Assembly (NCBI GenBank): GCA_001873625.1
Contig: MNZN01000012.1
Location: forward strand, 12,712 to 76,711
Length of the DNA: 64,000 bases
Direction: 5' to 3'
DNA from: Candidatus Saccharibacteria bacterium CG2_30_41_52
GTDB lineage: Bacteria; Patescibacteriota; Saccharimonadia; Saccharimonadales; Saccharimonadaceae
The position numbers were made by a program, and so were the translations under genes. The notes beneath the pieces are model-generated. The model was given only the letters and a program-made list of their open reading frames with translations, had not been told where the DNA came from and made no database searches. This document shows positions 7,700 to 23,371 of the stretch, one piece after another. How positions within the stretch are numbered: the first letter of the stretch is position 1; the number at the start of each line of letters is the position of its first letter.

Positions 7700-8174
7700 A
7701 CTGCCAGATAGTGTCGCTTCACCACAGGATTTAAATGCCCTATTGATTGAAGTTAGACAATATCAAAAATGGCTTGCTCACGAGTCTATAAAAAAGCAGG
7801 TTAATGTCAAACATATATCCGAACAGCCGGTTATGTCATCATCCATCAAAGAGCTTTTCCGTAATTACGATTTAAAAAAAATCATCGACCAGCATAGTAT
7901 TGAATCATTAATTGAGACCTTGGAAAAATACAAAAACTCCGCGCCATCAATTACCCTGACACTAGCAGCTACTCCAACAACTACCGTCAAATCAACTTTG
8001 GTAAGTTGGTGTCGCGATAATATTGCGCCCGACATATTAGTTGCCTTTCAATTTAATACCACTCTACTAGGCGGCATAGTAGTTCGACATGGCAGCCATA
8101 TTTTCGATTGGTCATTCAGACGTCAAATACTAGCTGCTCGTGAACATTTCCCAGAGGTACTGCGTAATGTTTGA
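7689..8174 (+). CDS. atpH: ATP synthase subunit delta (OSCP)
   Basis: C-terminal OSCP pattern ...LTLAATP...ILVAFQFNTTLLGGIVVRHGSHIFDWSFRRQI. Located between the b-like gene and alpha. Confidence 0.7.
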   Translation: MKLRLPDSVASPQDLNALLIEVRQYQKWLAHESIKKQVNVKHISEQPVMSSSIKELFRNYDLKKIIDQHSIESLIETLEKYKNSAPSITLTLAATPTTTVKSTLVSWCRDNIAPDILVAFQFNTTLLGGIVVRHGSHIFDWSFRRQILAAREHFPEVLRNV

Positions 8175-9609
8175 TAACCCAACTTTTCAAAAACTAGTCG
8201 AAGCTGACAACCTAACCGGCGAAGTAGTTGCTGTCAATAGTTTCATTATTGAAGTCCGCGGCCTAGAAGGCGTGCGTTTAGGCGCAAGTATTCTATTCCA
8301 AGACGGCCAACATGGAATGGTTCGTGAAGCCTATGGCAACAAAGTGATCTTATTCAACATTGACTCCGAAACAATGGCGCTAGGCACACTGGCGGTCGTA
8401 GAAAGCGACATGTTAAACATACCTGTTGGCAAAAAACTAGTTGGACGAGTAGTTTCGCCTATGGGACAACCGCTAGACGGCAAAGGCGCAATCCGAACAA
8501 CTGCAACTAGCGGTATCTTTAACGCCGCTCCGGGCATTATGGCCCGCAGCATGCTAAACGAACAACTAGCCAGTGGTGTTTCAGCAGTTGATAGTTTCTT
8601 CCCAGTGGTCCTAGGTCAGCGTATCGCCATCTTGGGCGATAGTAAATCAGGTAAAAGTACTTTTTTAAGCCAACTCAGCGCCAACCAAAAAGGTACCGAC
8701 CGCATCGTCGTTTACGTTTTGATTGGTAAACGTAAAGTCGACATTGAACAATTATTAACTGGCCTAAAAGATTCAGGTGCTATGGATCACACTATCGTAG
8801 TTTTGGCTGACATTTTTGATTCGCTTTCGCAATCATACCTGGCCCCATATGCCGGATGTGCCATGGCTGAATACCTATGGAATAGTGGCGAGGACGTAAT
8901 TATTATGTACGACGACCTTAGTAGCCATGCCGAAGCTTACCGACAGCTATCATTATTGCAAGAGGTCGACCCAGGGCGTGATTCTTATCCTGGCGATATG
9001 TTCTATTCACACTCAAGTCTACTAGAACGCGCTGGCAAATTATTGTCTAATGGCAAAACCTTAACTGCCCTACCAGTAGTATTGACGCCAAATGACGATA
9101 TTACCGCTTACCTATCAACCAACATTATGTCGATTACTGACGGACAGATTATCTTTGACCTTCGCGTTTTTCGACAAGGTATTCGTCCAGCCGTCAACGC
9201 CGGCCTATCTGTTTCGCGTGTTGGTGGCCAGGCCCAAACCAATCGTCAAAAACGGCTGTCAACGACATTATTTAAGACACTGGCAAAATATCACCAAGCT
9301 GAAGAGTTTTCACACTTTAGTTCCCAATTATCCAAAGAAACTACTATCGACCTAATCACTGGTAAATATATTTACGCAGCACTTCAACAACCGCCCGAAG
9401 AGCTTCACTCATTAGTCGAACAGCAATTAATTCTCGAAACCGTGATATTAAGCGGTGGCGAAATCGAAATCGATGTTCCTGGCATAAAGGAGTCTGCTAA
9501 ATCAGTCAGCTCTAAAGTCAAAGAAGAGAAAGATTTCGATCGAATTGAAGCCGAATTGTTAAAAAAGCATACCGTTAAATCCGAAGGTGGCGACCATGCG
9601 ACGAGCTAG
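8167..9609 (+). CDS. atpA: ATP synthase F1 subunit alpha
   Basis: Motifs YLAPYAGCAMAEY, IIMYDDLSSHAEAYRQLSLL, PGDMFYSHSSLLERA, LTALPVV, ITDGQIIF and GIRPAVNAGLSVSRVGGQAQT. The P-loop is GDSKSGKS. Start taken at ATG 8167, which overlaps the delta stop. Confidence 0.9.
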   Translation: MFDNPTFQKLVEADNLTGEVVAVNSFIIEVRGLEGVRLGASILFQDGQHGMVREAYGNKVILFNIDSETMALGTLAVVESDMLNIPVGKKLVGRVVSPMGQPLDGKGAIRTTATSGIFNAAPGIMARSMLNEQLASGVSAVDSFFPVVLGQRIAILGDSKSGKSTFLSQLSANQKGTDRIVVYVLIGKRKVDIEQLLTGLKDSGAMDHTIVVLADIFDSLSQSYLAPYAGCAMAEYLWNSGEDVIIMYDDLSSHAEAYRQLSLLQEVDPGRDSYPGDMFYSHSSLLERAGKLLSNGKTLTALPVVLTPNDDITAYLSTNIMSITDGQIIFDLRVFRQGIRPAVNAGLSVSRVGGQAQTNRQKRLSTTLFKTLAKYHQAEEFSHFSSQLSKETTIDLITGKYIYAALQQPPEELHSLVEQQLILETVILSGGEIEIDVPGIKESAKSVSSKVKEEKDFDRIEAELLKKHTVKSEGGDHATS

Positions 9610-10468
9610 TGCAATTGAGCGCGAGGCTGAACAAATTACGACTGTTCAGGATTTGACCAGTGTTTTTGAGAGCCTGGCTAGTACTCAGGTTGCAAAAATT
9701 AAGAACAAAGTTACACTTTCCGAAGAATTTTTCCAATTATTATGGAAGCGTTACAGCTCTATCAGGATCGACCCTAGTTTGCGTATTACTAATCGTGACG
9801 CCAATGGCGAACAAGCAAAAAAAGTCTTTGTTATCATTTCAGCCGAAGCAGGTCTAAGCGGCGACATCGACCAGCACCTTATCGAAACCATGCAACAAGA
9901 TTTAGATATGAATACAACTGACATTATTGTGTTGGGATCGCACGGCGCCAATCAGTTAGCTCAACGAAATATACCTTACGTTAGATTCTTTCAGGTTCCA
10001 GAATCCGACCATTATATTGATGTAAGTCCAGTCATTGACGCAATTTTGCCATATTCTAAAACAATCGTTTATTATGAGGAATACGTATCGCTAGGCGTTC
10101 AGGAAATAAAATCTATCGACTTAATTTCAAGTGTCCGTTCAATGAGCGAAGACGTGGATGACAATGTCGAAGAAGACGTTATGACCGCTGGAAATACTAT
10201 TTTTGAACCATCACTAGACGAGATTGCTGATCAGATGGAAGTAACCATGATGACACTGGCATTAAGTCAAACTATTTTGGAGTCCAGTCTTGCTCAGGCC
10301 GCTAGCCGATTTAACGCCATGGCAGTTGCAAAAAAGCGCGCCGGTGAATTATTGAATGATTACATGCTAGAGTTTCACCGAGCAAAACGAAGCGAAAGTG
10401 ACGGCCGTATGCGCGAAATCATGGTAAGCCTCAAGAAAAAACGAAAACATGCAGGAGTAAATCGATGA
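9587..10468 (+). CDS. atpG: ATP synthase F1 subunit gamma
   Basis: Lies between alpha and beta. N- and C-terminal helices are gamma-like (C-terminus ...SRFNAMAVAKKRAGELLNDYMLEFHRAKRSE). Alternative start at ATG 9596. Confidence 0.75.
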   Translation: MATMRRASAIEREAEQITTVQDLTSVFESLASTQVAKIKNKVTLSEEFFQLLWKRYSSIRIDPSLRITNRDANGEQAKKVFVIISAEAGLSGDIDQHLIETMQQDLDMNTTDIIVLGSHGANQLAQRNIPYVRFFQVPESDHYIDVSPVIDAILPYSKTIVYYEEYVSLGVQEIKSIDLISSVRSMSEDVDDNVEEDVMTAGNTIFEPSLDEIADQMEVTMMTLALSQTILESSLAQAASRFNAMAVAKKRAGELLNDYMLEFHRAKRSESDGRMREIMVSLKKKRKHAGVNR

Positions 10469-11817
10469 GAACTAATGCCGTCAAAATAGCAGGATCCGAA
10501 GTTGGAGTTATCAAGTCGCTTAGAGGTTTGATGGTTGAAATTCAAATAACTGGTGAGAGGCCTGACGTAAAAGAACTATTGATTGTCGAAAATCACCCAG
10601 AAGTATTTTTGGAAGTTAGCTTATTCAAAACCGATACAGCTGTATGTATTAATCTTACTAATAGCCAAGTTCTTTGTTGCGGCCAAAAAGTGTCACGCAG
10701 CAACACCAAAGTCACCGTTCCGGTCGGACCAAAAACTCTGGGACGAGTCTTTAGTGCCCTAGGCGAACCGCTTGATAATGGTCCAGCTCTTAATGACAAT
10801 CGACGCGCCATTAGCGAACCGTCAGGTACAAAAAACTATCACAAAGGCAAAAAGCTTGAACTGCTAGAGACAGGTATCAAAGTTATCGACTTTTTGACAC
10901 CATTCGTCAAGGGACGCAAAATTGGAATTGTCGGTGGTGCCGGTGTCGGTAAAACAGTCCTTACAATGGAGATGATTCACAACGTTACACGCAGTGAAAA
11001 AAGCTTGTCAATTTATTGTGGAGTTGGTGAACGTATCCGCGAAGGTAATGAATTATACGAAACATTAAAAGAAACCGAAGTGTTGAAAAATACAGTCATG
11101 TTCTTTGGACAAATGGACTCGACACCAGCAATTCGTTCAATGGTTGGACCAGCCGCTGCCACCAGCGCCGAATACTTCCGCGACGTTGAAGGCCGCGACA
11201 TTCTATTCTTCGTGGACAACATCTATCGCCATATTCAAGCCTTAACTGAACTTTCAACTAACCTGGGACTTATTCCTTCCGAAGGTGGCTATTCACCTAC
11301 CGTCTTTGCCGAACTGCGACGCCTCGAAGATCGACTCAGTTCCACCGACAAAGGAAGTATTACATCAGTTCAGGCCGTGTACATCCCTGCCGATGACCTT
11401 TCCGACCCTGCCGTGCAAGCAATTTCGCAACAGCTAGATTCAGTTTTGGTTTTGTCGCGTTCCGTTGCTGAAAACGGTATACGTCCAGCCGTCGACTTGC
11501 TTAAAACTACATCTTCGCTACTGACATCGACAATCGTTGGTGAGCGCCATTATCAATTGGCAGGCAAAGTCCAAGCTATCATGCAAAAATATGACTCTTT
11601 GAAAAACATTATCGCCATCGTTGGTGAAAACGAGTTATCACCTGCCGACCGCACCGATTATCAAAATGCTAAAAGATTAATCCAGTTCTTTTCACAAGAT
11701 TTCGCCGTTGCCGAACGTTACAACGGACGACCTGGCGAATATTACACTATCGATCAAACCTTGGATGGTATCGAAAAAATTCTTTTAGGCAAGGCAGCGG
11801 AAGAGGAAAAGAAATAA
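10465..11817 (+). CDS. atpD: ATP synthase F1 subunit beta
   Basis: Walker A GGAGVGKTV, GVGERIREGNE, FFVDNIYRHIQA, GSITSVQAVYIPADDLSDPA and GIRPAVDLL. ATGA overlap with gamma. Confidence 0.9.
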   Translation: MRTNAVKIAGSEVGVIKSLRGLMVEIQITGERPDVKELLIVENHPEVFLEVSLFKTDTAVCINLTNSQVLCCGQKVSRSNTKVTVPVGPKTLGRVFSALGEPLDNGPALNDNRRAISEPSGTKNYHKGKKLELLETGIKVIDFLTPFVKGRKIGIVGGAGVGKTVLTMEMIHNVTRSEKSLSIYCGVGERIREGNELYETLKETEVLKNTVMFFGQMDSTPAIRSMVGPAAATSAEYFRDVEGRDILFFVDNIYRHIQALTELSTNLGLIPSEGGYSPTVFAELRRLEDRLSSTDKGSITSVQAVYIPADDLSDPAVQAISQQLDSVLVLSRSVAENGIRPAVDLLKTTSSLLTSTIVGERHYQLAGKVQAIMQKYDSLKNIIAIVGENELSPADRTDYQNAKRLIQFFSQDFAVAERYNGRPGEYYTIDQTLDGIEKILLGKAAEEEKK

Positions 11818-11823
11818 TAAAAT

Positions 11824-12087
11824 ATGCGCCAGCCAGATAGTACATCTCGCTTGAACGTAATTGCTCGCGCACCTTTTAACGTTTATTACGAAGGCCCGGC
11901 CGAGGCTGTGACTGCCGTGAACAAAGTTGGCAAATTTGACGTTTTACCAGGTCACGCTGACTTTTTTTCGATATTAAATCCTGGTGAAATAATCATTGAA
12001 ACCGCGACTAATCCTGTCAGCTTTAATGTCACCAACGGCATCATCACAGTCCGAGACGACGAAGTATATCTTTTCGTTAATATCTAA
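11824..12087 (+). CDS. atpC: ATP synthase F1 subunit epsilon (short, beta-sandwich domain only)
   Basis: 87 aa. Pattern ...VTAVNKVGKFDVLPGHADFFSILNPGEIII... There is no C-terminal helical hairpin. Confidence 0.7.
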   Translation: MRQPDSTSRLNVIARAPFNVYYEGPAEAVTAVNKVGKFDVLPGHADFFSILNPGEIIIETATNPVSFNVTNGIITVRDDEVYLFVNI

Positions 12088-13134
12088 TTATTGCATTACC
12101 ATGTAATCGAATGCGTAGCCACCAGGCGCCAATGAACCGTTGATTCCTATACTAAATCCGCTTGCATCGCGATTAACATACGCACTACCTGTAACATGTC
12201 CAACTGCAGTAACAACAACGTGAGGTATATTACTATATTGATTGATAAAGGCTACGTAAGCCACAATGCCATTACCGCCGCCAACTCCGATATTAATAGC
12301 TACTGTCCCCGAAGCATCATTACCACTAATCGATATAGTACCGTTACTGCCAAGCGCTGGCCCAGGACCAACGCCGGGCGCTACGCCGCGAGTAATCACG
12401 TGACCACCGATAGTCAGTGTAGTATCTGATACCAGACTGCTAGCCTGAAATCCCCTGGCCGATAAAGTTCCACCAACAGCCAAATTACCTATTATATTAA
12501 CGTTATTATTAACAGTTAATAACTGGCTCATGGTTACCGGACCTTGCAAACTAGAAGACCCAGCAACTATTAAATTATTACGCAAATTCATGTTAGATAC
12601 CGTGCCATCACCACTGATGTTTACTTGACTAAGCGTTGTGTCACCTGCTTCTAGTTTAGTTATGCTAGCATCACCGGCCGAGAATTTACTACTAAGGTTA
12701 AATAGTCCAGCCACACTGACGTCACCGCCAACCGTAACTTTGCCTTTAAATGTCGAATTAGGACCGACAATCAGTTCGGTATTAGAATCACCTACTGGAT
12801 TGCGGCTGACCCCTAGCGTATCCAAAACATCAGAACTAATCGTCACCTCACCCTGAGTTGTTTTTTGCTCATTTTGAACTTGAGTATTCATCAAATAAAT
12901 AATAATGCCGGCATTTGCAGCCAAAATAACTGCAACTACAGCCAGACCTACGAAAGTTGCCTTGTGGCTAGGACGATACGTTGCATGACGAGGACGCAAA
13001 GCCGCCCGTGGAGACGCCGCAGCAGCAGAAGATTCTGGTTCAGAAGATTTATTATCGGTTTGAACTCGTAATAACTCAGGAGCTGGCGGCTCCGTTGATT
13101 TATTCTTGTTATCAGTTGATGGATGATTATTCAT
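12088..13134 (-). CDS. type II membrane-anchored protein with extracytoplasmic beta-helix-like repeats
   Basis: Charged N-terminus, one TM helix (FVGLAVVAVILAANAGIIIYL), then repetitive G/V/S/T/N-rich short strands (VTVGGDVSVAG, NISGDGTVSN, NIIGNLAVGG ...). Its stop codon abuts the atpC stop with 0 nt between them. Confidence 0.5.
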   Translation of the reverse strand: MNNHPSTDNKNKSTEPPAPELLRVQTDNKSSEPESSAAAASPRAALRPRHATYRPSHKATFVGLAVVAVILAANAGIIIYLMNTQVQNEQKTTQGEVTISSDVLDTLGVSRNPVGDSNTELIVGPNSTFKGKVTVGGDVSVAGLFNLSSKFSAGDASITKLEAGDTTLSQVNISGDGTVSNMNLRNNLIVAGSSSLQGPVTMSQLLTVNNNVNIIGNLAVGGTLSARGFQASSLVSDTTLTIGGHVITRGVAPGVGPGPALGSNGTISISGNDASGTVAINIGVGGGNGIVAYVAFINQYSNIPHVVVTAVGHVTGSAYVNRDASGFSIGINGSLAPGGYAFDYMVMQ

Positions 13135-13249: not shown

Positions 13250-13981
13250 ATGTCAAAGAGGTTAATTTGGTGGGTGCGTATGTCGGTTATTTTGACATAT
13301 TTTATTGTTTGCGGTGCAACCACCGTATATGCCGAAACCCTCCAATCAAACAATTATAAATTCGACGAAAGTGTCGTCGGCGCTGGTGGATTAGTTGATT
13401 CGTCATCAAGCAGCTATCAAGGCAGCAGTTCAACCGGTGATTTAGTAGTCGGCAATACTGCTTCTGGCGGTTATCAAATCGATACTGGATCAAAAACAAC
13501 TCCTGACCCGACATTATCATTTGCGATTAATAATAGCGACGTTGATTTTCCGGATTTTACACCAACTGGAACATCCGTAAAGTCTATGACATTTTCAGTA
13601 TTGAACTACACCAGCTATGGTTACGCAGTCCAAATATTCGGCAATCCGCCCACTAACGGAGCCCATACGATTACACCAATGCTAGCAACCGACACATCAC
13701 AAATCGGCCAAGAACAATTTGGGATTAATCTGGTTGCCAATACTCTACCATCTTCTATCGGTGCCAACCCAGACAATGGACAATTCGGGTTTGGAGCTGT
13801 CGAAACGAATTACAATACTCCGAATAGCTATCGTTATGTCGCTGGTGAAACGATTGCATCAGCCCCTAAAAGTTCTGGTATAACCGTCTACACAATTAGC
13901 TACATAGTTAACGTTGCCAGTATTACTCCTGGTGGAAAATATACCAGCGATCAAACAATTATAATAACTGGTACGTATTAA
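13250..13981 (+). CDS. secreted beta-rich protein, distant paralogue of the two following proteins (putative minor surface-fibre subunit)
   Basis: Signal peptide ...TTVYA/ETLQ. Shares QFGINLVANT and the C-terminal YTISYIVNVASITPGGKYTSDQTIIITGTY* pattern with ORFs 14117 and 15340. Confidence 0.5.
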   Translation: MSKRLIWWVRMSVILTYFIVCGATTVYAETLQSNNYKFDESVVGAGGLVDSSSSSYQGSSSTGDLVVGNTASGGYQIDTGSKTTPDPTLSFAINNSDVDFPDFTPTGTSVKSMTFSVLNYTSYGYAVQIFGNPPTNGAHTITPMLATDTSQIGQEQFGINLVANTLPSSIGANPDNGQFGFGAVETNYNTPNSYRYVAGETIASAPKSSGITVYTISYIVNVASITPGGKYTSDQTIIITGTY

Positions 13982-14038
13982 TTGTCCACTATTTTGGCAT
14001 AGTTATCCACAATTTAGCAATAAAGATAGCCCAACCTG

Positions 14039-14067
14039 TTGACATGTTATAACGCTAGTGCTATTGT
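14039..14067 (+). promoter_or_regulatory. sigma70-like promoter candidate (TTGACA-17-TATTGT)
   Basis: TTGACA at 14039-14044, a 17-nt spacer, and TATTGT at 14062-14067. It lies about 50 nt upstream of the 14117 start. Confidence 0.4.
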
Positions 14068-14116
14068 TATCTTAACAAAACCAATTTAATAGATTGAGAA
14101 AACGAAAACAAAAACA

Positions 14117-15253
14117 ATGGCAACAAAACAAAAATTATCAACGAAAATTATAAGTATAGCTGTATTGGTTTCAATATTGCTATCACAAGTACTACCCTTC
14201 AGTACCGCATCAGCTGCCCAAATTACAGCTCGTAAATTAACCCTTCAAGCAGGTGCCGCCGACGGCGGTTCAATGGCTGGTGGTGTCGTAAACCATTTGT
14301 TTGATTTTGCCCTACCAAGTGGTACTACTGTTGGATCAATCGAATTTGAATATTGTACACTTGCCGCTGGCGTTCCTAACCCAGACACCTGCGTAACACC
14401 AACTGGTCTTAATACTACTTCAGCTACTATAGGTAGCCAAAGCGGTGCTGCAACCGGATTTACAATGGTCAACACGACCAATGGTGCTCCATATTTAACT
14501 CGCACTACAGCAGTTATTACTCCGGGTGTCGCCCAATACCGATTAGATACAATCACTAACCCAACTACCGAAAATGAAACTTTCTTTGTCCGTGTATCTA
14601 CCTTTGCTTCTACGGATGCTACTGGTACTAAGACCGATACAGGTACGGTAGCTGCTAGCACTACAACTCAGATTATCCTATCGGGTATCATGCCAGAATC
14701 ACTAGTCTTTTGTACAGGAGCAACAATTTCTGCCCCAATCGCAAACGTTCCTGACTGTTCAACTGCAACTAGCGGCGCAATCAGCTTTAACCAATTGTTC
14801 TCTCCTGTCGATACTGCATATGCAACATCACAAATGGCTGCATCAACTAATGCTGGGTCAGGATATAACATTACTGTAAATGGTCCAACCTTAACATCAG
14901 GATCAAATACCGTAGTAGCAATGAACGCTGCCGACATCAGCCGACGCGGTGTTAGCCAATTCGGACTAAACCTAGTCGATAACACACCTGACCTTGTTAC
15001 TCCAGACGTTGGTGCTGCAATCTCGCTAGCCTCAAACGGAACAAACTTCCGCGCTCAGGCCCTAGCAGGATACAACACAGACGCAACCTTCAAGTTTACC
15101 CCTGGTGATAGCGTCGCCGACAGTGCAAGCGGCGGAGCCGGTGGAACAGACGCACAGATTATGACCGTATCATACATTGTGAACGTAACTGGTAGTCAAC
15201 CAGCTGGTACCTACACCTCGACTCTTACTTACATCTGTACACCAACATTCTAA
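14117..15253 (+). CDS. secreted T/S/G/A-rich beta protein, putative major surface-fibre subunit (paralogue 1)
   Basis: Signal peptide ...STASA/AQITARKL. The C-terminus is QIMTVSYIVNVTGSQPAGTYTSTLTYICTPTF*. High identity to 15340-16464 in the C-terminal half. Confidence 0.55.
   Translation: MATKQKLSTKIISIAVLVSILLSQVLPFSTASAAQITARKLTLQAGAADGGSMAGGVVNHLFDFALPSGTTVGSIEFEYCTLAAGVPNPDTCVTPTGLNTTSATIGSQSGAATGFTMVNTTNGAPYLTRTTAVITPGVAQYRLDTITNPTTENETFFVRVSTFASTDATGTKTDTGTVAASTTTQIILSGIMPESLVFCTGATISAPIANVPDCSTATSGAISFNQLFSPVDTAYATSQMAASTNAGSGYNITVNGPTLTSGSNTVVAMNAADISRRGVSQFGLNLVDNTPDLVTPDVGAAISLASNGTNFRAQALAGYNTDATFKFTPGDSVADSASGGAGGTDAQIMTVSYIVNVTGSQPAGTYTSTLTYICTPTF
14750..14883 (+). repeat. 134-bp tract identical to 15961-16094 (copy 1)
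   Basis: Compared base by base: cctgactgttcaactgcaac...attactgtaaatgg is identical in both paralogues. Flanking DNA is only about 75-80% identical. Confidence 0.9.
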
Positions 15254-15266
15254 TAAAACTGTGGAT

Positions 15267-15297
15267 AAATAGCCGTCAATATCATTGACGGCTATTT
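15267..15297 (+). terminator. perfect 14-bp stem hairpin between the two paralogues
   Basis: AAATAGCCGTCAAT-atc-ATTGACGGCTATTT lies 14 nt after the stop. It is followed by AAAG rather than a long U tract, so it may attenuate rather than fully terminate. Confidence 0.5.
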
Positions 15298-15314
15298 AAA
15301 GCTTATGTTACAAT
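15285..15314 (+). promoter_or_regulatory. promoter candidate TTGACG-18-TACAAT with TG extended -10
   Basis: The -35 element lies in the 3' arm of the preceding hairpin. TGtTACAAT is at 15306-15314, 25 nt before ATG 15340. Confidence 0.4.
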
Positions 15315-15339
15315 CCTCTTAATGAGAGTGAGGGGTAAC

Positions 15340-16464
15340 ATGAGTGGAAAATATAAATTACTAAGATTATTTGTCAGCGTTCTATTATTAGTAACTACTG
15401 TTAGTACCGCATTTGGAGGCCAATCGGCTTTAGCTGCGCAGATTACAGCTCGTAGTCTTCAGCTTCAGGCTGGTGTTGCTGATGGGGGCTCAAAAGCCAG
15501 TGGTGTCGTAAATCACTTCTACACATTCACTATACCTACCACTGGAAACGTTGGATCTATTCAATTCTTATACTGCACAACAGCTAGCGGTACTTGTACT
15601 ACCCCTACAGGCCTAGCTACTACCGCAGCTACTTTAAACGGAACACAAACTGGTGCGACAGGATTTACACTTGGCACCACACCTACGGTTGATGGTGCCC
15701 CATATATAACACGCGCTCCATCCAGCGTTACAGGTCCCCAAGTTGTTACATATAAATTAGATGGCATAACAAACCCATCAACAGCAAACCAAACCTTTTA
15801 TGTCCGTATATCTACTTGGACACTAGCAGACCTAGGTGGCGCCAGTACTGACGCCGGCGTCGTGGCCGCCAGTACCGCATCACAGATTATCCTAACTGGA
15901 CAAATGCCAGAATCTCTAATCTTTTGTGCTGGTGCAACTATATCAGCTCCAGGCGGAATCCCTGACTGTTCAACTGCAACTAGCGGCGCAATCAGCTTTA
16001 ACCAATTGTTCTCTCCTGTCGATACTGCATATGCAACATCACAAATGGCTGCATCAACTAATGCTGGGTCAGGATATAACATTACTGTAAATGGCACTAC
16101 AATGACATCCGGTTCAAATACAGTTACCGCTATGAACTCAGCTGATATCAGCCGACGAAGCGTTAGCCAATTCGGTCTTAACTTGATGGATAACACACCA
16201 GATGCCGTCACTCCAGACGTAGGTACTGCAATTACAGCAGCGTCTAACGGTACAGATTTACGAGCGCAAGCCCTAGCAGGATATAGCACAGATGGCACAT
16301 TCAAATTCACACCAGGTGAAAGTGTCGCTGACAGCGCAAACGGTGGAGCGGGCCCTACAAACGCCCAGATCATGACCGTATCTTATATCGTCAACGTAGC
16401 AGGTAGCCAGGCAGCCGGTACATACACAACTACCCTAACCTACATCTGTACAGCAACTTTCTAG
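15340..16464 (+). CDS. secreted T/S/G/A-rich beta protein, putative major surface-fibre subunit (paralogue 2)
   Basis: Signal peptide ...GQSALA/AQITARSL. The C-terminus is QIMTVSYIVNVAGSQAAGTYTTTLTYICTATF*. Start taken at ATG 15340 after a GAGGGG RBS; the ORF track start is 15322. Confidence 0.55.
   Translation: MSGKYKLLRLFVSVLLLVTTVSTAFGGQSALAAQITARSLQLQAGVADGGSKASGVVNHFYTFTIPTTGNVGSIQFLYCTTASGTCTTPTGLATTAATLNGTQTGATGFTLGTTPTVDGAPYITRAPSSVTGPQVVTYKLDGITNPSTANQTFYVRISTWTLADLGGASTDAGVVAASTASQIILTGQMPESLIFCAGATISAPGGIPDCSTATSGAISFNQLFSPVDTAYATSQMAASTNAGSGYNITVNGTTMTSGSNTVTAMNSADISRRSVSQFGLNLMDNTPDAVTPDVGTAITAASNGTDLRAQALAGYSTDGTFKFTPGESVADSANGGAGPTNAQIMTVSYIVNVAGSQAAGTYTTTLTYICTATF
15961..16094 (+). 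repeat. 134-bp tract identical to 14750-14883 (copy 2)
   Basis: See copy 1. Confidence 0.9.
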
Positions 16465-16467
16465 CCT

Positions 16468-17472
16468 ATGAAAAAGAACCAAATACTTATTACAGCTTGT
16501 CTAAGCTTTACAGCTCTAGCCTTCGGATTGATATATTCAACACCTCAAGTTGCCGCTCAGACTAATGCAACTGGGCAAGGGCTTGAAATTGCACCACCAG
16601 TTATTACACTAACAGCTGATCCAGGACAAACAATTAATACAAAGATTAGTCTACGCGACGTTTCAGGTGGAGATTTAGTTGTAACCGGTCAAATTAATGA
16701 CTTCGTAGCTAGCGGCGAAGGTGGCGCACCAAAAGTGTTGCTAGAAGAAACCGATAAAAGTCCTTACTCAATTAAGGATTGGATTAGTCCTCTTCCAGAA
16801 TTAACATTAAAACCTAAACAGATAGAAAACCTTCCAGTAACTATAACTGTGCCGACAAATGCAGCACCTGGTGGTTATTATGGCGTAATTCGTTTTACGG
16901 CCACACCCCCCGAACTAAAAGATACAGGCGTATCACTATCAGCTAGCTTAGGGGCATTGATATTGCTGAGAGTTAATGGCGACGTAAAAGAAGAACTATC
17001 AATTGAAGAGTTTTTTGTTAGTAAAAATGGCGGCAAAGGGACCTTGTTTGAAACAGCTCCATTGCAATTTTCTGAACGTTTAAAAAATGATGGTACTATT
17101 CACGAAAAACCAAGTGGCCTAGTAACTATAACTGACATGTTCGGTAATAAAACTGCTACTTTAGGTATTAATCAACCGCCAACCAATATTTTGCCAGGCA
17201 GTATTCGTAAATACGATCAAACATTAGATAGTTCGGTAATTGGCAACAAGATATTATTTGGGCTATATACAGCTGACCTCAGCATTACATATGGTGCAAA
17301 TAACACCGTATTAAATCAAAAGATTACATTCTGGGTTATACCATATACGCTAATTGGCGCAACAATTGCCGCACTAATCATTGCATTCCTTGGTCTACGC
17401 TATGCAATCAAACGTTACAACAAACACATTCGCGACCAAGTACTCGGCACTACTAAAAAGTCAAAAAAGTAA
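16468..17472 (+). CDS. signal peptide + beta-sandwich (Ig-like) domains + C-terminal TM anchor; DUF916/DUF3324 (CscA)-like layout
   Basis: Signal ...PQVAA/QT. Strands LEIAPPVITLTADPGQTINTKISLRDVSG and PVTITVPTNAAPGGYYGVIRFTA. C-terminal TM helix LIGATIAALIIAFLGL with a basic tail RYAIKRYNKH...KKSKK. There is a 3-nt gap to the upstream gene. Confidence 0.5.
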   Translation: MKKNQILITACLSFTALAFGLIYSTPQVAAQTNATGQGLEIAPPVITLTADPGQTINTKISLRDVSGGDLVVTGQINDFVASGEGGAPKVLLEETDKSPYSIKDWISPLPELTLKPKQIENLPVTITVPTNAAPGGYYGVIRFTATPPELKDTGVSLSASLGALILLRVNGDVKEELSIEEFFVSKNGGKGTLFETAPLQFSERLKNDGTIHEKPSGLVTITDMFGNKTATLGINQPPTNILPGSIRKYDQTLDSSVIGNKILFGLYTADLSITYGANNTVLNQKITFWVIPYTLIGATIAALIIAFLGLRYAIKRYNKHIRDQVLGTTKKSKK

Positions 17473-17513
17473 TACTATAATCAAGTCGTTTTACACTTAC
17501 GGCACGGTGTATA

Positions 17514-18500
17514 TTGCCTAGTATGCGTGATATAATACAGATTATGCTAACATGGTTGAAATTAAGTCAACATCATCATAGCGGTCGTTTAAGGCCTCAT
17601 GAACATACCTCTTATGCCCTACTAGGACTGATACTGATAATAGTCGGCCTTGCTTTGACTGCTTATACTGCATACGCCTCAACGCCATATACAGGACCCG
17701 AAGCTGGATCAATAAGCTTGACCGGCGTTATGCCTGGCAAACCGCCGACAATTGCCGCAACAATCAAATCCACAAATGACCAGGAACGTTTTACCAATTC
17801 ACCCGTTATATTTACTGGAACTTGTCCAGCTAATACATTGGTAGAAATATTTAAAAATGATATTTTTGCAGGATCAACTCCGTGTACTGACGCTGGGATT
17901 TATTCGGTTAGTATTGATTTGATGATTGGGCAAAACATTCTAAAAGCCCGGGTTTATGATGCTTTGAACCAACCAGGCCCTGATTCAACACCGCTAATAG
18001 CGTTCTACGACGCTTTGCCTCCACAAGCTGGCCCATTAACGTCGCTAAATTTTGGTGGCTCACAATTATTGTTAAATACTGATGCAGCCTTTCGTGGAAT
18101 TTTTCCTAACCAAGAATTGAACATTCCTATCGATATCCTCGGTGGTACTGCCCCATACGCATTCAACATTCAATGGGGAGATGCTACTAACAAAGTCGTA
18201 TCGCGTAGTGACAATATGACATTTAAAGTCGGACACACTTACCTAAAAGCAGGTACATACCAGATTTCAATCCAAGCAACCGACGCAATGGGTCGTGTTG
18301 CCTTTCTGACAGTCGCCTCAATCGTAAACGGACAACCTATTATTGCAGCTGCTACTGGCACTGGAAGTGCGGCTGAAAACAAACTATTGGTATTATGGCC
18401 ACTTTATGTCAGCGCAGTTGCTGTTGTTATGAGCTTTTTCATTGGCGAAAAACGCGAAAAACGCGTTCTGATAAAGCATGGTTTACTACAGACCCTATAG
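17514..18500 (+). CDS. membrane protein with PKD-type domain, anchored at both ends
   Basis: N-terminus is His-rich (HHHSGRLRPHEHTSY) followed by a TM helix. PKD-like block APYAFNIQWGDATNKVVSRSDNMTFKVGHTYLKAGTYQISIQATDAMGRVAF. C-terminal TM helix LLVLWPLYVSAVAVVMSFFIG. Start may be ATG 17544. Confidence 0.55.
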   Translation: MPSMRDIIQIMLTWLKLSQHHHSGRLRPHEHTSYALLGLILIIVGLALTAYTAYASTPYTGPEAGSISLTGVMPGKPPTIAATIKSTNDQERFTNSPVIFTGTCPANTLVEIFKNDIFAGSTPCTDAGIYSVSIDLMIGQNILKARVYDALNQPGPDSTPLIAFYDALPPQAGPLTSLNFGGSQLLLNTDAAFRGIFPNQELNIPIDILGGTAPYAFNIQWGDATNKVVSRSDNMTFKVGHTYLKAGTYQISIQATDAMGRVAFLTVASIVNGQPIIAAATGTGSAAENKLLVLWPLYVSAVAVVMSFFIGEKREKRVLIKHGLLQTL

Positions 18501-18640: not shown

Positions 18641-21600
18641 GTGTATTTTGGTGTGTTAAAAGTTTGCCGCAAGCTAACTGCATATGCCCTCTTATTGGGC
18701 TTGTTGGCTGGCGGCTTCATTTTAATTTCCAACCCTGTTAAAGCTGCTCCTGGTATAAACAAGCAAATTAATTTCCAAGGTCGTTTATTGAATTCTCAGG
18801 GTGCAACTGTTCCCGATGGATACTACAACATCGAATTTAAAATCTACCAAGACGGCGATGGCTTAACTGTAGCCTCTACTGGTACACCTGCTGGCACACC
18901 AGAATGGACTGAGGATTGGCTAAACAACAACGGCGACGGCGTTATGGTTAAAAATGGTTTTATGTCAGTTGAACTAGGTTCTGTAACAGCTTTTGGAACA
19001 AGCATTGACTGGAACCAAGACACGCTATACCTATCAATGAACATTGCAGGCATCAATCCAACATGCGCAACCTTTGCTGCTTGTACACCTGACGGTGAAA
19101 TGCTACCTATGAAACGTTTGTCATCAACACCCTACTCTCTAAATTCTGGGTTACTAGGCGGACTATCGAGTGCTCAGTTTTTACAGCTTGCTCAAGGCGT
19201 TCAAACTGATGCTTCAACCAACACCAGCAGCATCTATGTCAACAAGACCGGAACTGGCAATTTGGTTACATTACAATCTGGCAGCAATGATTCATTCGTC
19301 ATCAACAACACAGGTGACATCAATTTTGGTGCCAACGCCAATCACACCGTTTCAGTAACTACAGCCGCTGCGAGTACAGCTGGAAAATCATTGACCATTA
19401 CCGGTGGTGCAGCTGGTACCGGCGCTACCGCACTAGCTGGTGGCGATTTGGTATTACAAGGTGGTGCAGCTGGTGGAACAAACAGCGACGGCGGCAACGT
19501 AACAATCGATGCTGGGCTTAAAAATGGCAGTGGTGCTGACGGCACAATCAGTATCGGCAATAGTTTAGCTAGTACAATCCAGATTGGTAATGCAACATTA
19601 GCTACCGGCACTCAGACAATTAACGTCGGTAACGCCAACACAGCTGGTGGTACGACCAACGTTACTGTTGGTAACGGCGGAACTGCAACTGGCGGTACTA
19701 CTACGATACAAGCCAAAGGCAACGTTATGATCAGCACCAACGGCATAACCCGTGCAACTTTTGATACAACAAACGATTTATACCTGGGTAACGGTACAAT
19801 CGCAGCAGCCCCAAATGACTTTACAATCATCGGAACTGCCAGCAGCACAACAGCTGTCGCCGGTGGATCAATCAATGTTCAAGGCGGAAACGCTACTGTT
19901 GGTGATGCCAATGGCGGTAACGTAGCAATTAACTCTGGTACACTGTTTGGTTCTGGCACCGATGGAACTGTAAGTATCGGTAATACTCACGCATCTACCG
20001 TGCAGATTGGTAACCCTACTCTTGCAGTTGGCACCCAAACTATCAATGTCGGTAACGGCGATACTGCCGGTGGAACAACTAACGTTACTGTTGGTGCCGG
20101 CAGCACAGCAGCTGGCGGTATAACAACTGTTCGCTCAAAAGACGATTTAACCGTAACTACCAGCAATGGAAATATGGGATTAACAGCAGGTGCTGGCACA
20201 ATGACAGTCAGCAGCAGCGGAAACTCATCTCTGACTAGCACCGGTGGAACTATTGCCCTTAGCAGTAACGGAAACACAACTATCACTAGCACCGCTGGAA
20301 CAGTTGGCATAGTAAGCAACGGTGCCACTACCATCACAACCAACGGCGCTGTTCGTGGAACTTTTGACTCAGCATCATATGGACTTTATCTAGGTGCTGG
20401 AGTAACCGGAGCTTTGAATCCATTCACAGTAAGCGCAACTAATGGCTCTGCTGGAGTCGCCGGTAGCGCATTGACTGTCAAAGGTGGCATTGGTGGATCA
20501 AGTTCAGCTGGTGGTGCATTGAATTTGCAAGGTGGTGCCGGTGGAACAACATCAGGCGCTGGTGGTGCAGTCGGCGTTCAGGGTGGAAATGCAACCGCTG
20601 GAAACTCAAACGGCGGAGACCTTTCACTTAACGCTGGTACTAAATTTGGCGCTGGTGTTGATGGCAACATAAATATTGGAAATCTGAATACTAATACTAT
20701 CCAAGTTGGCAATACCGCACTTGCAGCTGGTACTCAAACCATCAATATTGGCAATAACAATACCGCTGGTGGAACAACAAACGTCACAATCGGATCTGGA
20801 AATACTGCAACTACCGGCACAACTGCATTACAAGCCAAAGGGAATATCACAATTAGCACCGCCGGTGTTGCCCGCGGTACATTTGATAGTGCAACCGGGA
20901 ATCTATATCTAGGCAACGGCGTAACAGCTGGCGCTCCAAGCAATTTCACTATTAGCGGCACTGGTAGTTCTACAACCGCAGTTGCAGGTGGCACAATTAC
21001 CGTTCAAGGTGGAAACGCTACCGTTGGTAATGCCAACGGCGGCAATTTAACACTAAGCGGTGGTACTGGTTTTGGTACAGGGTCTAACGGTTTAGTGGTC
21101 ATGAGTACGCCTACCTTCTCGACAACAGCAAACGACGCCAACTGTTACACTGGCGGAGCATTGGTTGCTGCTACTTGTACATTCACAAATGCATCTGTTA
21201 ATAACTCAGCCGCTATTTTGGCTGGCTTTAGTGCTACTGGCCAAACTGCTAATTTACCAGACCCTACAATTTCTACGGCTGGACGAGTTATATACATTAC
21301 CGCTGCTAATTCCAGCAAAGACTTTATTTTATCAGTAAACGGTGGTGGCGTTGGTGATACAATCGCCATGCGTCAAAATACTACTGCAACCATGATTTGG
21401 AACGGCTCAGATTGGACTGCAGCCGGTGCATCCAGTTCGACAACTTTGCAATCTGCATACGACAACACTTTGACGACAGCTGGTGGTGCCGAGTTAGTTC
21501 TAAGCAACAGCGCTAATGCAAACGGATTAACAATTCGTGATAATCCAACTACGCCAATTAATGGCGCATTATTGGAAGTACAAACCTCCACCGCAGGTCA

Positions 21601-23371
21601 ATTATTCTCGATTAATAACAATACAACTGAATATGCCAAGGATGGTGGTGCTGAGACTGGCGGCGGTACCAGCGATACAACCGATGCAACTTTCCCTGCA
21701 ACAACTTGGTCACAAACTGCAACCGGTAGTACTGTTTCACGTACAACAACCACTATCAATGCCAATGCCCAGATTTCAACTGGTATGGCATCTGTTTCAG
21801 TTGTTACAACCGGTACAGCAAACGCCGGCGCAATTAATCGCCTATCGACAACATTGACACAAAACATGCGCTACAACGTGTCGTTCACTTCTAAGCTATT
21901 ATCAACCAGCAATGCCTTCCAGGATCTAGCCGTTTATTATTCAGTCAACGGTTCAACTTTGACGACACAGTGTGTCAATTATAGTACGCAAACTATACAA
22001 GTTAGTGCTTGGTCTAAAATAAACTGTACAGTTTCAATTCCAGCAGGAGCAACGTCAACAAACTCAATTATTATCGTCCAAACCGGTGCAACTGCCCACA
22101 CATTCTATATCGACAACCTTAGCGTTTCACTAAGCGCTGACGTCAACTATGCAACTGACGGTGGTGCAGATGATACTGCGAACTTTGCTACTAACTGGAC
22201 TGCTGTTGGTAGCGCATCAGTAGCAGCCGATGCATCTGTAGGAAATGAACGAAATACTAGCGCCAGAGTAACTGCAGGTACAGCAGCGGGAAATGGAATA
22301 CGCAATATTTTATCCATTAATCCATTCACAGGTAGTACGCTTTATCGAGTAACTGTCTATGCATACATATCTGCCGGAACCACTCCATTTAATGATTTCA
22401 CGATTCGTTATTCACCAAACGCAGGTACTAACTTTATCAGCTGTAAAGATTATAATACTCAAATAGTCAGCACTTCGCCTGGTGATTTTGCCAAGATAAC
22501 TTGCTACATAACGACTGACAATACTGCCATAACAACACCTTACGTTTATTTCACACAAACAGCCGCAGCCGGCAGCGCTCGAACATGGTATGTTGATACG
22601 TTCTCGATGAACCTATCCAGCAACACCGTTCCAAACGTTCAAATCGGTGGCGGTTTAGCTGGTAGCCCACTAACACTATTCACTTTGGACCGAGGTGCGT
22701 CTGCGCCAATCGCAGCCAACAATGATGCCCTACTAGGTTCAATGTACTACGATACAACATTGGGCAAATTGCAATGTTACGAATCTGATGGTTGGGGTGC
22801 TTGTGGTTCAAGCCCTGATAACGTTATTACAATCTCGCCAGAATACACCAATGCCGTATTACACGGAACTGGTGTCGGTACAATGACATCAGACCTATGT
22901 TCTGATACTTTGGATATCAATGACGGTAGCTCATCTCAAGCAACAATCTGCGGAACAAACGAAACATACAACTTCTATAAATGGACATCTCCACAAGCTA
23001 GTGCACAAACATACAGCATCTATGTTACCTACCAATTACCAAGCACATTCAAGTCATTTACTTCTGGACAAACGTCACTCATGGGACGTACTGATAATGG
23101 TCCTTCGTCAGGTACTGGCACAGTTCAATATTCTATTTTCAGAAACTCTACCGGATCTGTTCTAACGCAATGCGGATCCGCAATTACAGTTTCAACCGGA
23201 ACATCTACTGCATGGGAAATCGGTACAACAACTGGCGAAAATGGCGCAGCCGATCCGTCAGCCTGTGGATTTAACGCTGGTGATAGTATTGTGTTCAAAA
23301 TTGATATGATCGCTAACCAAAACGCAAATGCATACGTCGGCAACCTTAACTTCACCTTCACAAATAAGTAG
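18641..23371 (+). CDS. giant secreted surface protein (1576 aa): conserved N-terminal module, three G/T/N-rich solenoid-like modules, two CBM4_9-like beta-sandwich domains, Cys-containing C-terminal domain
   Basis: Signal/anchor LLLGLLAGGFILISNPVKA/AP. N-terminal module INFQGRLLNSQGATVPDGYYNIEFKIY. Repeats of TIQIGNxxLAxGTQTINVGNxxTAGGTTNVT. The FYIDNLSVSL and WYVDTFSMNL endings are typical of carbohydrate-binding-module-like domains. Confidence 0.6.
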   Translation: MYFGVLKVCRKLTAYALLLGLLAGGFILISNPVKAAPGINKQINFQGRLLNSQGATVPDGYYNIEFKIYQDGDGLTVASTGTPAGTPEWTEDWLNNNGDGVMVKNGFMSVELGSVTAFGTSIDWNQDTLYLSMNIAGINPTCATFAACTPDGEMLPMKRLSSTPYSLNSGLLGGLSSAQFLQLAQGVQTDASTNTSSIYVNKTGTGNLVTLQSGSNDSFVINNTGDINFGANANHTVSVTTAAASTAGKSLTITGGAAGTGATALAGGDLVLQGGAAGGTNSDGGNVTIDAGLKNGSGADGTISIGNSLASTIQIGNATLATGTQTINVGNANTAGGTTNVTVGNGGTATGGTTTIQAKGNVMISTNGITRATFDTTNDLYLGNGTIAAAPNDFTIIGTASSTTAVAGGSINVQGGNATVGDANGGNVAINSGTLFGSGTDGTVSIGNTHASTVQIGNPTLAVGTQTINVGNGDTAGGTTNVTVGAGSTAAGGITTVRSKDDLTVTTSNGNMGLTAGAGTMTVSSSGNSSLTSTGGTIALSSNGNTTITSTAGTVGIVSNGATTITTNGAVRGTFDSASYGLYLGAGVTGALNPFTVSATNGSAGVAGSALTVKGGIGGSSSAGGALNLQGGAGGTTSGAGGAVGVQGGNATAGNSNGGDLSLNAGTKFGAGVDGNINIGNLNTNTIQVGNTALAAGTQTINIGNNNTAGGTTNVTIGSGNTATTGTTALQAKGNITISTAGVARGTFDSATGNLYLGNGVTAGAPSNFTISGTGSSTTAVAGGTITVQGGNATVGNANGGNLTLSGGTGFGTGSNGLVVMSTPTFSTTANDANCYTGGALVAATCTFTNASVNNSAAILAGFSATGQTANLPDPTISTAGRVIYITAANSSKDFILSVNGGGVGDTIAMRQNTTATMIWNGSDWTAAGASSSTTLQSAYDNTLTTAGGAELVLSNSANANGLTIRDNPTTPINGALLEVQTSTAGQLFSINNNTTEYAKDGGAETGGGTSDTTDATFPATTWSQTATGSTVSRTTTTINANAQISTGMASVSVVTTGTANAGAINRLSTTLTQNMRYNVSFTSKLLSTSNAFQDLAVYYSVNGSTLTTQCVNYSTQTIQVSAWSKINCTVSIPAGATSTNSIIIVQTGATAHTFYIDNLSVSLSADVNYATDGGADDTANFATNWTAVGSASVAADASVGNERNTSARVTAGTAAGNGIRNILSINPFTGSTLYRVTVYAYISAGTTPFNDFTIRYSPNAGTNFISCKDYNTQIVSTSPGDFAKITCYITTDNTAITTPYVYFTQTAAAGSARTWYVDTFSMNLSSNTVPNVQIGGGLAGSPLTLFTLDRGASAPIAANNDALLGSMYYDTTLGKLQCYESDGWGACGSSPDNVITISPEYTNAVLHGTGVGTMTSDLCSDTLDINDGSSSQATICGTNETYNFYKWTSPQASAQTYSIYVTYQLPSTFKSFTSGQTSLMGRTDNGPSSGTGTVQYSIFRNSTGSVLTQCGSAITVSTGTSTAWEIGTTTGENGAADPSACGFNAGDSIVFKIDMIANQNANAYVGNLNFTFTNK
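19488..21040 (+). repeat. three diverged copies of a roughly 140-aa coding module inside the 1576-aa gene
   Basis: Module starts are at about 19488, 19914 (copy diverges after about 75 aa) and 20612. Each begins GG(N/D)(V/L)..(D/N)(A/S)G..(N/F)GSG.DG.(I/V)SIGN...T(I/V)QIGN..LA.GTQTINVGN..TAGGTTNVT. Confidence 0.7.

Follow-up and report, generated by a model that had tools for sequence, protein, structure and literature searches.

We analysed a stretch of 64,000 nucleotides (hereafter the window, to which all positions refer) from contig MNZN01000012.1 of Candidatus Saccharibacteria bacterium CG2_30_41_52, in which five genes between positions 13,250 and 18,500 very probably form a Pam-type pilus operon (rough probability 0.85). 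Such an operon would specify a Sec-dependent, ATP-independent donor-strand pilus that grows from its base. The locus itself is ordinary, being a further copy of an operon which is present in most Saccharimonadales and was described and modelled in 2026. The new result of this analysis concerns the fourth gene: by comparison of sequence profiles, the family of its product, a membrane-anchored chaperone, is a remote homologue of WxLIP (DUF916+DUF3324) over both domains. The five genes are as follows.

13250..13981, plus strand: pamT, tip subunit, 243 aa, matched by NF058579 and NF058581
14117..15253, plus strand: Pam pilin 1 (COV88_00160), 378 aa, matched by NF058581
15340..16464, plus strand: Pam pilin 2 (COV88_00165), 374 aa; the first in-frame ATG at 15322 would give 380 aa
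16468..17472, plus strand: membrane-anchored chaperone (COV88_00170), 334 aa
17544..18500, plus strand: pamR, RbmA-like terminator/anchor matched by NF058578, 318 aa from its likely ATG start; the reading frame opens at TTG 17514 (328 aa)

All five were found in the list of open reading frames (ORFs) of the window, co-directional on the plus strand and at the positions that a first-pass annotation, made from the letters alone, had given for them. Its description of five such genes, three of them paralogues with shared motifs, agrees with the ORFs, the phmmer searches and the alignment. Genes 2 to 4 show 100 % identity to COV88_00160, COV88_00165 and COV88_00170 of a Candidatus Saccharibacteria metagenome-assembled genome (MAG), each deposited as a hypothetical protein. 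In line with the earlier guess at a bacterium of the Candidate Phyla Radiation (CPR), these sequences identify the source organism as a CPR bacterium. In gene 3, the second ATG at 15340 is the deposited start of COV88_00165 (374 aa), and in pamR the conservation over 70 orthologues starts at the ATG at 17544 (M11 counted from the TTG). An N-terminal hydrophobic segment is present in all five proteins according to hydropathy.

The identification is carried by a profile scan with NCBIfam release 20 at the curated cut-offs, which are 240 bits for NF058579, 300 bits for NF058578 and 55 bits for NF058581. Gene 1 reached 278.7 bits with the equivalog model NF058579 (CPR_pilus_PamT) and gene 5 reached 313.4 bits with the equivalog model NF058578 (CPR_pilus_PamR). 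The Pam pilin C-terminal acceptor domain (NF058581) was detected in PamT, pilin 1 and pilin 2 with 150.3, 140 and 134.6 bits, respectively. Pfam recognised next to nothing in the five proteins. The NCBIfam Pam models derive from the preprint of Troman et al. 2026 (bioRxiv 10.64898/2026.03.03.709456), and it is because of them that the five “hypothetical proteins” of the MAG can now be named. The first-pass annotation had suspected a remote fibre module without sortase or usher, which these matches uphold, the homologues forming donor-strand filaments as seen by cryo-electron microscopy (cryo-EM). It had also known of no description of such a module in Saccharibacteria-like genomes, a statement overtaken by the 2026 preprint and the models.

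The Pam pilus is a donor-strand pilus specific to CPR bacteria which uses neither usher nor sortase (Troman et al., bioRxiv 10.64898/2026.03.03.709456). In Ca. Mycosynbacter amalyticus, two filaments, of PamA and PamB, were solved by cryo-EM. Their pilins begin with a nine-strand beta-sandwich N-terminal domain (NTD), which a linker strand connects to a truncated Ig-like C-terminal domain (CTD), the CTD of a neighbour being completed by the linker of the adjacent subunit in a filament that is an extended one-start helix, not a coiled rod (bioRxiv 10.64898/2026.03.03.709456). From AlphaFold models, the same work proposes PamC and PamD as two PapD/FimC-like chaperones with a transmembrane anchor, PamT as a tip subunit consisting of the CTD only, and PamR as an RbmA-like membrane anchor and terminator with an extra N-terminal strand and a C-terminal transmembrane helix (bioRxiv 10.64898/2026.03.03.709456). 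The M. amalyticus system has no usher; ATP synthase genes, whose adjacency is left unexplained, and a tail-fibre-like gene are conserved neighbours of Pam genes, and the analogy to chaperone-usher pili is drawn by the preprint itself (bioRxiv 10.64898/2026.03.03.709456).

The window agrees with this reference system in many respects. The models for PamT, PamR and the pilin C-domain all score above their cut-offs, each pilin is made of two domains, the first of them a nine-strand NTD, and has a conserved linker, and the chaperone is anchored by a transmembrane helix and has two Ig-like domains. Both systems do without usher, sortase or ATPase, both hosts are CPR bacteria, and in both the conserved surroundings include ATP synthase and a fibre-like protein. 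The operons differ in that the window encodes a single chaperone instead of PamC and PamD, and two pilins of ~35 kDa which are ~70 % identical (69 % for P0140) instead of PamA (55 kDa), PamB (39 kDa) and PamE. The gene order in M. amalyticus, read off the accession numbers in the preprint, is T-A-E-D-R-B-C; by gene order, the window would thus correspond to the T-A-E-D-R part without the PamB/PamC module, and it is by synteny that its pilins are placed relative to PamA, PamB and PamE. A phmmer search of the 64-kb window found no further pam paralogue such as a second chaperone or a PamB-like pilin.

According to their sequences, the three subunits are true paralogues and not alike by chance. 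In phmmer searches within the window, pilin 1 matched pilin 2 with E 5e-149, and PamT matched the two larger pilins with E 8.9e-14 and 2.2e-11. The alignment contains the motifs QFGINLVANT, QFGLNLVDNT and QFGLNLMDNT as well as a terminal pattern SYIVNV...G(K/T)YT...T.T(F/Y) that stops exactly at the stop codon, and the summed content of T, S, G and A is 0.42-0.51. In PamT, an N-terminal region rich in S and G follows the signal peptide and leads into the acceptor domain (Pam pilin C-terminal domain); NTD and linker are both absent. Pilin 1 is built from a signal peptide, an NTD (~36-183), a linker (~183-217) and the Pam pilin C-domain (218-378). In the AlphaFold2 (AF2) model of the pilin 1 monomer, the NTD has nine beta-strands between residues 40 and 181 at a predicted local distance difference test (pLDDT) of 80-90; from residue 184 on the chain is unfolded (pLDDT ~25), although the same alignment folds the NTD. 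This model is compatible with a C-domain that would need a complementing strand. With the C-domain of pilin 1 unmodelled, Foldseek returned only generic matches to Ig-like adhesins and pilins, and these for the NTD. Neither the pilin sequence nor the pilin profile matched any sequence in a PDB set without the PamA/PamB entries 25PZ and 25QA.

The mature pilins contain five cysteines each (C80, C92, C199, C214 and C374 in pilin 1); across homologues, four of these never vary and the remaining one hardly does. C199 falls inside the predicted donor linker, and mature PamT has no cysteine. The odd number leaves room for an intermolecular disulfide between linker and acceptor or for a free thiol. 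Antisense ORFs of 105-191 aa lie within the pilin genes on the minus strand (14245-14661, 14668-14985 and 15798-16373); rather than being genes, they most likely result from the biased T/S/G/A codon usage.

A segment that stands out in the pilins by its conservation is the linker between NTD and CTD.

14663..14716, plus strand: predicted donor strand (linker) of pilin 1, aa 183-200, TTQIILSGIMPESLVFCT, conserved block
15877..15930, plus strand: predicted donor strand (linker) of pilin 2, ASQIILTGQMPESLIFCA, conserved block

Its consensus reads I-x-L-x-G-x-M-P-E-S-L-x-F-C. The block 191-200 has a conservation of 0.87 over 150 pilins, which is among the highest; the C-terminal strands and the QFGLNL block form further peaks. 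All 126 distinct linker segments contain G, P, E, F and C, and 124 of them contain M. PamT shows an alignment gap where the pilins have the linker, and a hidden Markov model (HMM) of the linker found nothing in 72 PamT proteins (maximum -1.0 bits) or in 77 chaperones. By homology to the solved filaments, the donated strand is most likely this linker.

The first-pass annotation had suggested the C-terminal strand as the donated one, and several features favour a Pam-type filament of that kind: conservation peaks in the last 28 residues (0.80-0.92), which end at the stop codon, and the final residue is F or Y in 222/222 subunits (150 pilins and 72 PamT from 80 related loci). Such a filament is nevertheless very improbable, because PamT, which as a tip needs no donor, keeps the C-terminal strands and lacks the linker, and because the linker is donated and the CTD accepts in the cryo-EM structures of PamA and PamB. 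These conserved C-terminal strands are most likely part of the acceptor domain itself. In chaperone-usher pilins, the acceptor groove is lined by a conserved C-terminal strand with its free carboxylate, both of which also touch the chaperone.

The linker also has a counterpart in PamR. This protein has an N-terminal hydrophobic segment (35-53), two Ig/FnIII-like domains and a C-terminal transmembrane segment (292-310), and a linker-like segment is located just past the N-terminal hydrophobic stretch.

17712..17735, plus strand: linker-like segment ISLTGVMP at the mature N-terminus of PamR (residues 67-74), candidate donor strand, detected with the pilin-linker HMM

The segment scores 6.6 bits. 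Over 70 PamR proteins the median best score with the pilin-linker HMM is 2.85, and the scores of shuffled controls had their median at -5 and their 95th percentile at -1.0, the highest being 2.9. At the level of sequence, this lends modest independent support to the proposal that the N-terminal strand of PamR caps the last pilin. Gene 5 had earlier been described as a doubly anchored PKD-domain protein: hydrophobic segments are indeed found at both ends, but the PKD match is weak and below threshold (Pfam, E 1.9e-4, 21.8 vs 23.5 bits). Ahead of the first hydrophobic segment (17544-17650), a His-rich cytoplasmic motif, (M)..W.KL.HH.HSG.LRPHEHTSY, is conserved in 70 orthologues. Such conservation is odd for the n-region of a plain signal peptide; one may ask whether the segment is cleaved or whether it functions in sorting or as a second anchor.

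The AF2 model of the 334-aa chaperone (mean pLDDT 82.3) has a signal-like N-terminal helix and two beta-sandwich domains (39-146 and 160-290). A C-terminal transmembrane segment follows (290-308 by hydropathy, helix 293-325 in the model), and then a basic tail. Signal peptide, beta-sandwich segments, C-terminal transmembrane helix and basic tail had all been recognised in the first pass, and the segments quoted there fall into confidently modelled strands. In a Foldseek search of the PDB, the top match was 9i25_C, the WxLIP of E. faecium bound to a long WxL protein (E 9.8e-11), ahead of RbmA and of the chaperone-usher chaperones; CfaA, YadV, Caf1M, DraB, CsuC and FimC matched at E 5e-9 to 2e-7, and template modelling scores (TM-scores) were low throughout (0.25-0.46). 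By the model, the fold matches and the sequence comparisons given below, gene 4 encodes a membrane-anchored chaperone of the PamC/PamD type and of the WxLIP superfamily. One loop of its N-domain is conserved but modelled with low confidence.

16708..16767, plus strand: conserved loop of the chaperone N-domain, aa 81-100, ASGEGGAPKVLLEETDKSPY, candidate complementing strand

The loop has a pLDDT of 53-62 despite the invariant residues D78, F79, E84, G86, P88, S101 and W105 flanking it or within it, and it aligns with the WxLIP segment that lies between the same strands. The analogy to the WxLIP hairpin that completes WxL suggests that loop 81-100 is a candidate for the strand lent to the acceptor domain of the subunits.

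The kinship with WxLIP extends from the fold to the sequence. The chaperone itself matched PF06030 (WxLIP_PGBD, DUF916) with E 6.4e-4 and 20.2 bits, below the gathering score of 27.3, and 82/110 diverse members of the chaperone family matched this model, the best with E 3.8e-9. Alignment of the chaperone family by hhalign gave 95.9 % against the E. faecium WxLIP (E 5.9e-9, 229 columns, both domains), 96.4 % against the E. gilvus WxLIP (E 1.4e-9, 234 columns) and 99.0 % against a WxLIP alignment from eight genera (E 3.3e-18, 231 columns). Against PDB sequences, the only match of the chaperone was a weak one, of its profile to EfmWxLIP1 (E 0.04). These comparisons support a shared ancestor of the Pam chaperone and WxLIP. 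WxL and DUF916 are nowhere mentioned in the Pam preprint (bioRxiv 10.64898/2026.03.03.709456), and literature searches found no paper tying WxL to a donor strand, or WxL or DUF916 to CPR bacteria.

The likeness does not extend to the subunits. None of them matched PF13731 (WxL domain, Pfam) at E <= 1, and the Pam C-domain, aligned by hhalign both with PamT included and without it, reached 0.1 % and 1.6 % against alignments of 10 and 16 WxL sequences. The only piece aligned was the terminal hairpin (Pam IVNV..G.YTTTLTY.IC vs WxL L.VP......Y.TTL.W.L), which was not significant; with an HMM of the Pam C-terminal hairpin, 4/16 WxL proteins exceeded the 99th percentile of shuffled sequences, the match lying at their second WxL motif, but the median did not differ. 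The earlier label “Csc/WxL-like” therefore fits the chaperone only, whose DUF916/DUF3324 character is borne out by hhalign, PF06030 and Foldseek, and fails for the subunits, which have no detectable WxL domain.

A WxL cluster typically comprises one WxLIP together with two kinds of WxL protein, a small one consisting of the domain only and a large one in which N-terminal domains precede a C-terminal WxL domain, and WxL proteins have been described as peptidoglycan-bound surface proteins, not as filaments (PMC10599100). WxLIP shares with the chaperone the succession of signal peptide, two Ig domains and transmembrane helix, and the clusters follow the same logic of a domain-only subunit, subunits with N-domain and C-domain, and one partner anchored by a transmembrane helix. 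They differ from the window in that a Csc/WxL cluster has a small LPXTG protein (CscD), whereas no ORF with an LPXTG-like C-terminus is present in the window, and in that WxL proteins run past their last strand, at which the Pam subunits stop. The locus is thus not a Csc/WxL cluster, though its chaperone belongs to the WxLIP superfamily.

These parallels could also be read as a static Csc/WxL-like surface complex, in which the WxLIP-like 334-aa protein docks the three secreted proteins one-to-one and no filament is formed. The homology to WxLIP in both domains, the best structural match in the PDB to a WxLIP bound to WxL and the parallel make-up of the clusters would fit this, and one-to-one docking has been proposed for enterococcal WxLIP and WxL. 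We regard it as improbable, since the subunits show no WxL domain and bear the Pam pilin C-domain, whose homologues form filaments by cryo-EM, and since an invariant linker motif in the pilins, none in PamT and a mimic in PamR are what is expected of a head-to-tail polymer with a tip and a base.

A broader relation is conceivable alongside the Pam-type operon. Pam pili and Csc/WxL clusters may be divergent branches of one monoderm, usher-less superfamily that combines a membrane-anchored chaperone with strand-complemented subunits, a tentative reading to which we give clearly less than even odds. The Pam C-domain and the WxL domain may then be equivalent acceptors, with PamT as the counterpart of the small WxL protein and the pilins as counterparts of the large ones. 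Csc/WxL clusters with a gene for a small LPXTG protein were also seen on Firmicute plasmids of E. faecium, B. thuringiensis and E. mundtii (L082, L085 and L087), where this gene overlaps the small WxL gene. On the plasmids of B. thuringiensis and E. mundtii, the gene for the LPXTG protein comes first, then those for small WxL and WxLIP, and in E. mundtii a large WxL follows. It is a speculation that the LPXTG protein of these plasmid clusters is the functional counterpart of PamR as anchor.

The conservation of the operon was studied in a scan of reference genomes that yielded 80 related loci, all of them (80/80) from Saccharibacteria or Patescibacteria, with chaperone identities of about 43-67 %. 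The order T-(P)n-C-R is kept in 67/80 loci, and the 13 without it are cut by contig ends or fragmented. The exact order T-P-P-C-R, found in 64/80 loci, is the commonest layout in Saccharibacteria. Complete operons contain two pilin genes in 64 loci, and one, three and four in one locus each. The deviating copy numbers 1, 3 or 4 occur in L013, L038 and L050; L070 and L078 look fragmented by frameshifts or provided with extra copies. As a common minimal form with one chaperone, T-P-P-C-R would lend itself better to reconstitution than the reference operon with its seven genes. Co-conservation in relatives had been named at the outset as a point on which the idea of a fibre module could fail, and the five-gene order is retained in 64-67/80 loci.

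This synteny bears on the most sceptical explanation, namely that unrelated secreted adhesins or S-layer-like proteins happen to lie side by side and gene 4 encodes a generic Ig-domain membrane protein. The tandem-Ig Foldseek matches of gene 4 are generic, RbmA, ciliary proteins and transglutaminase appearing near 1e-9, and the TM-scores quoted above would suit such a protein. Given that the five-gene order persists across divergent chaperones, that curated Pam equivalog models are matched and that a linker-like motif is common to pilins and PamR, this explanation can hardly be credited.

In principle, the Pam-type operon of the window resembles the chaperone-usher pili of diderm bacteria (Pap/Fim, CFA/I, Caf1, Csu), with which it would share donor-strand complementation and exchange on incomplete Ig-like subunits, and shares a two-Ig-domain chaperone and a tip subunit without donor strand. 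It differs in several ways. Chaperone-usher chaperones are of the PapD family, whereas the Pam chaperone is membrane-anchored and by sequence not of that family: PapD Pfam models matched 0/110 members of the chaperone family, and the control alignment of the family with E. coli FimC by hhalign gave 0.9 %. Membership of the PapD family was therefore rejected, the likeness being one of fold with no relation in sequence. The donor in chaperone-usher pili is an N-terminal extension; in Pam it is an internal linker, and the pilins have an extra NTD. Chaperone-usher pili need an usher and an outer membrane, and Pam has neither. No outer-membrane usher was found in the operon, in the nearby ORFs that were scanned or in the conserved surroundings of the 80 loci, the rest of the window not having been profile-scanned. 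The system would work like a chaperone-usher pilus without belonging to that family.

The sortase-assembled pili of Gram-positive bacteria resemble it in having Ig-like pilins on a monoderm envelope, and the pilin NTD shows weak generic Foldseek likeness to domains of EbpB, SpaD and RrgB (E 2.5e-4 to 1e-2). They require LPXTG and a pilin-specific sortase, whereas the window contains no LPXTG, sortase signature or pilin motif; a regex search of all window ORFs >= 80 aa found neither LPXTG near the C-terminus nor the sortase signature TLxTC, in agreement with the first reading, which had noted no sortase and no LPXTG motif. Unlike in sortase pili, assembly in Pam would be a non-covalent strand exchange.

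Several points weigh against the assignment to a Pam-type pilus. The source on the Pam system is a preprint in which the roles of the chaperones, PamT and PamR are AlphaFold-based. No NCBIfam model matched the chaperone, and its PamC/PamD-type label rests on architecture and fold match. The PamR score barely exceeds its cut-off, and the linker mimic of PamR is short, with 8 residues and the low score given above. Since the C-domain was left unmodelled, its incomplete Ig fold rests on family membership. A single chaperone and the absence of a PamB/PamC module mean that details of assembly may differ from the reference. Finally, scans for promoter and terminator consensus sequences between 11.8 and 24.5 kb gave results at chance level.

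The mechanism, in strand exchange, order of assembly and function alike, is inferred from homology to the system of Ca. Mycosynbacter amalyticus that was characterised by cryo-EM. All five proteins would be exported by Sec. The CTD of each subunit would be an incomplete Ig-like barrel into which the membrane-anchored chaperone inserts a strand, keeping it assembly-competent. PamT, having an acceptor domain only and no donor strand, would begin the filament and so come to lie at its distal tip. Each incoming pilin would oust the chaperone strand with its own NTD-CTD linker, and this swap of linker for chaperone strand would allow growth at the base without ATP, usher or sortase. PamR would end the process by plugging the last pilin with its linker-like strand, its C-terminal transmembrane helix tying the fibre to the membrane. 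The likely role of such a fibre would be long-range contact with, or adhesion to, a host bacterium.

The surroundings of the operon are conserved as well and comprise the following genes.

7689-12087, plus strand: F1 ATP synthase genes delta, alpha, gamma, beta and epsilon, abutting the pilus locus; the adjacency is conserved
12088..13134, minus strand: divergent gene of 348 aa, between atpC and pamT in 65/80 loci
18641..23371, plus strand: giant T/S/G/A-rich surface protein of 1576 aa, directly 3′ of pamR in 68/80 loci
23488-29136, plus strand: second giant protein, 1882 aa, with an N-terminal transmembrane segment and many Kelch/beta-propeller repeats (Kelch_1 E 4e-31)

The arrangement atpC-f(-)-T occurs in 65/80 loci, R-G, with the giant gene right after pamR, in 68/80, and the complete string atpC-f-T-P..-C-R-G in 58/80. 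The 348-aa protein has a cytoplasmic N-terminus, a transmembrane segment (61-79) and a beta-helix or bactofilin-like ectodomain. Its matches in Pfam were weak (bactofilin E 0.017, WxLIP_HBD E 0.013), and no PHROG or NCBIfam entry matched. It is probably the tail-fibre-like neighbour of the Pam preprint; a part in the pilus system is unproven.

The 1576-aa protein has an N-terminal anchor or signal and ~3 internal repeats of ~190 aa (..SIGN..ST.Q.GN..LA.GTQTIN.GN..TAGGTTNVT.G..). It matched no Pfam, NCBIfam or PHROG entry, and phmmer found no Pam pilin domain in it. Given its position after pamR in so many loci, it may function together with the pilus or else form a fibre of its own; its part in the pilus system is likewise unproven. 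Together, the genes for the 1576-aa and 1882-aa proteins make up a block of ~10.5 kb encoding very large surface proteins 3′ of the pilus operon.

What gives the locus its interest is the homology of the Pam chaperone to WxLIP, a pointer to a wider superfamily of donor-strand systems in monoderms. Through this kinship, a pilus of CPR bacteria is linked with the widespread Csc/WxL clusters known from lactobacilli, enterococci, Listeria and Bacillus, clusters that are poorly understood in their assembly and function. If the superfamily reading were true, it would provide an evolutionary origin for Pam pili, a question left open by the Pam authors, and one would expect WxL proteins, too, to be assembled and perhaps oligomerised through donor-strand complementation.

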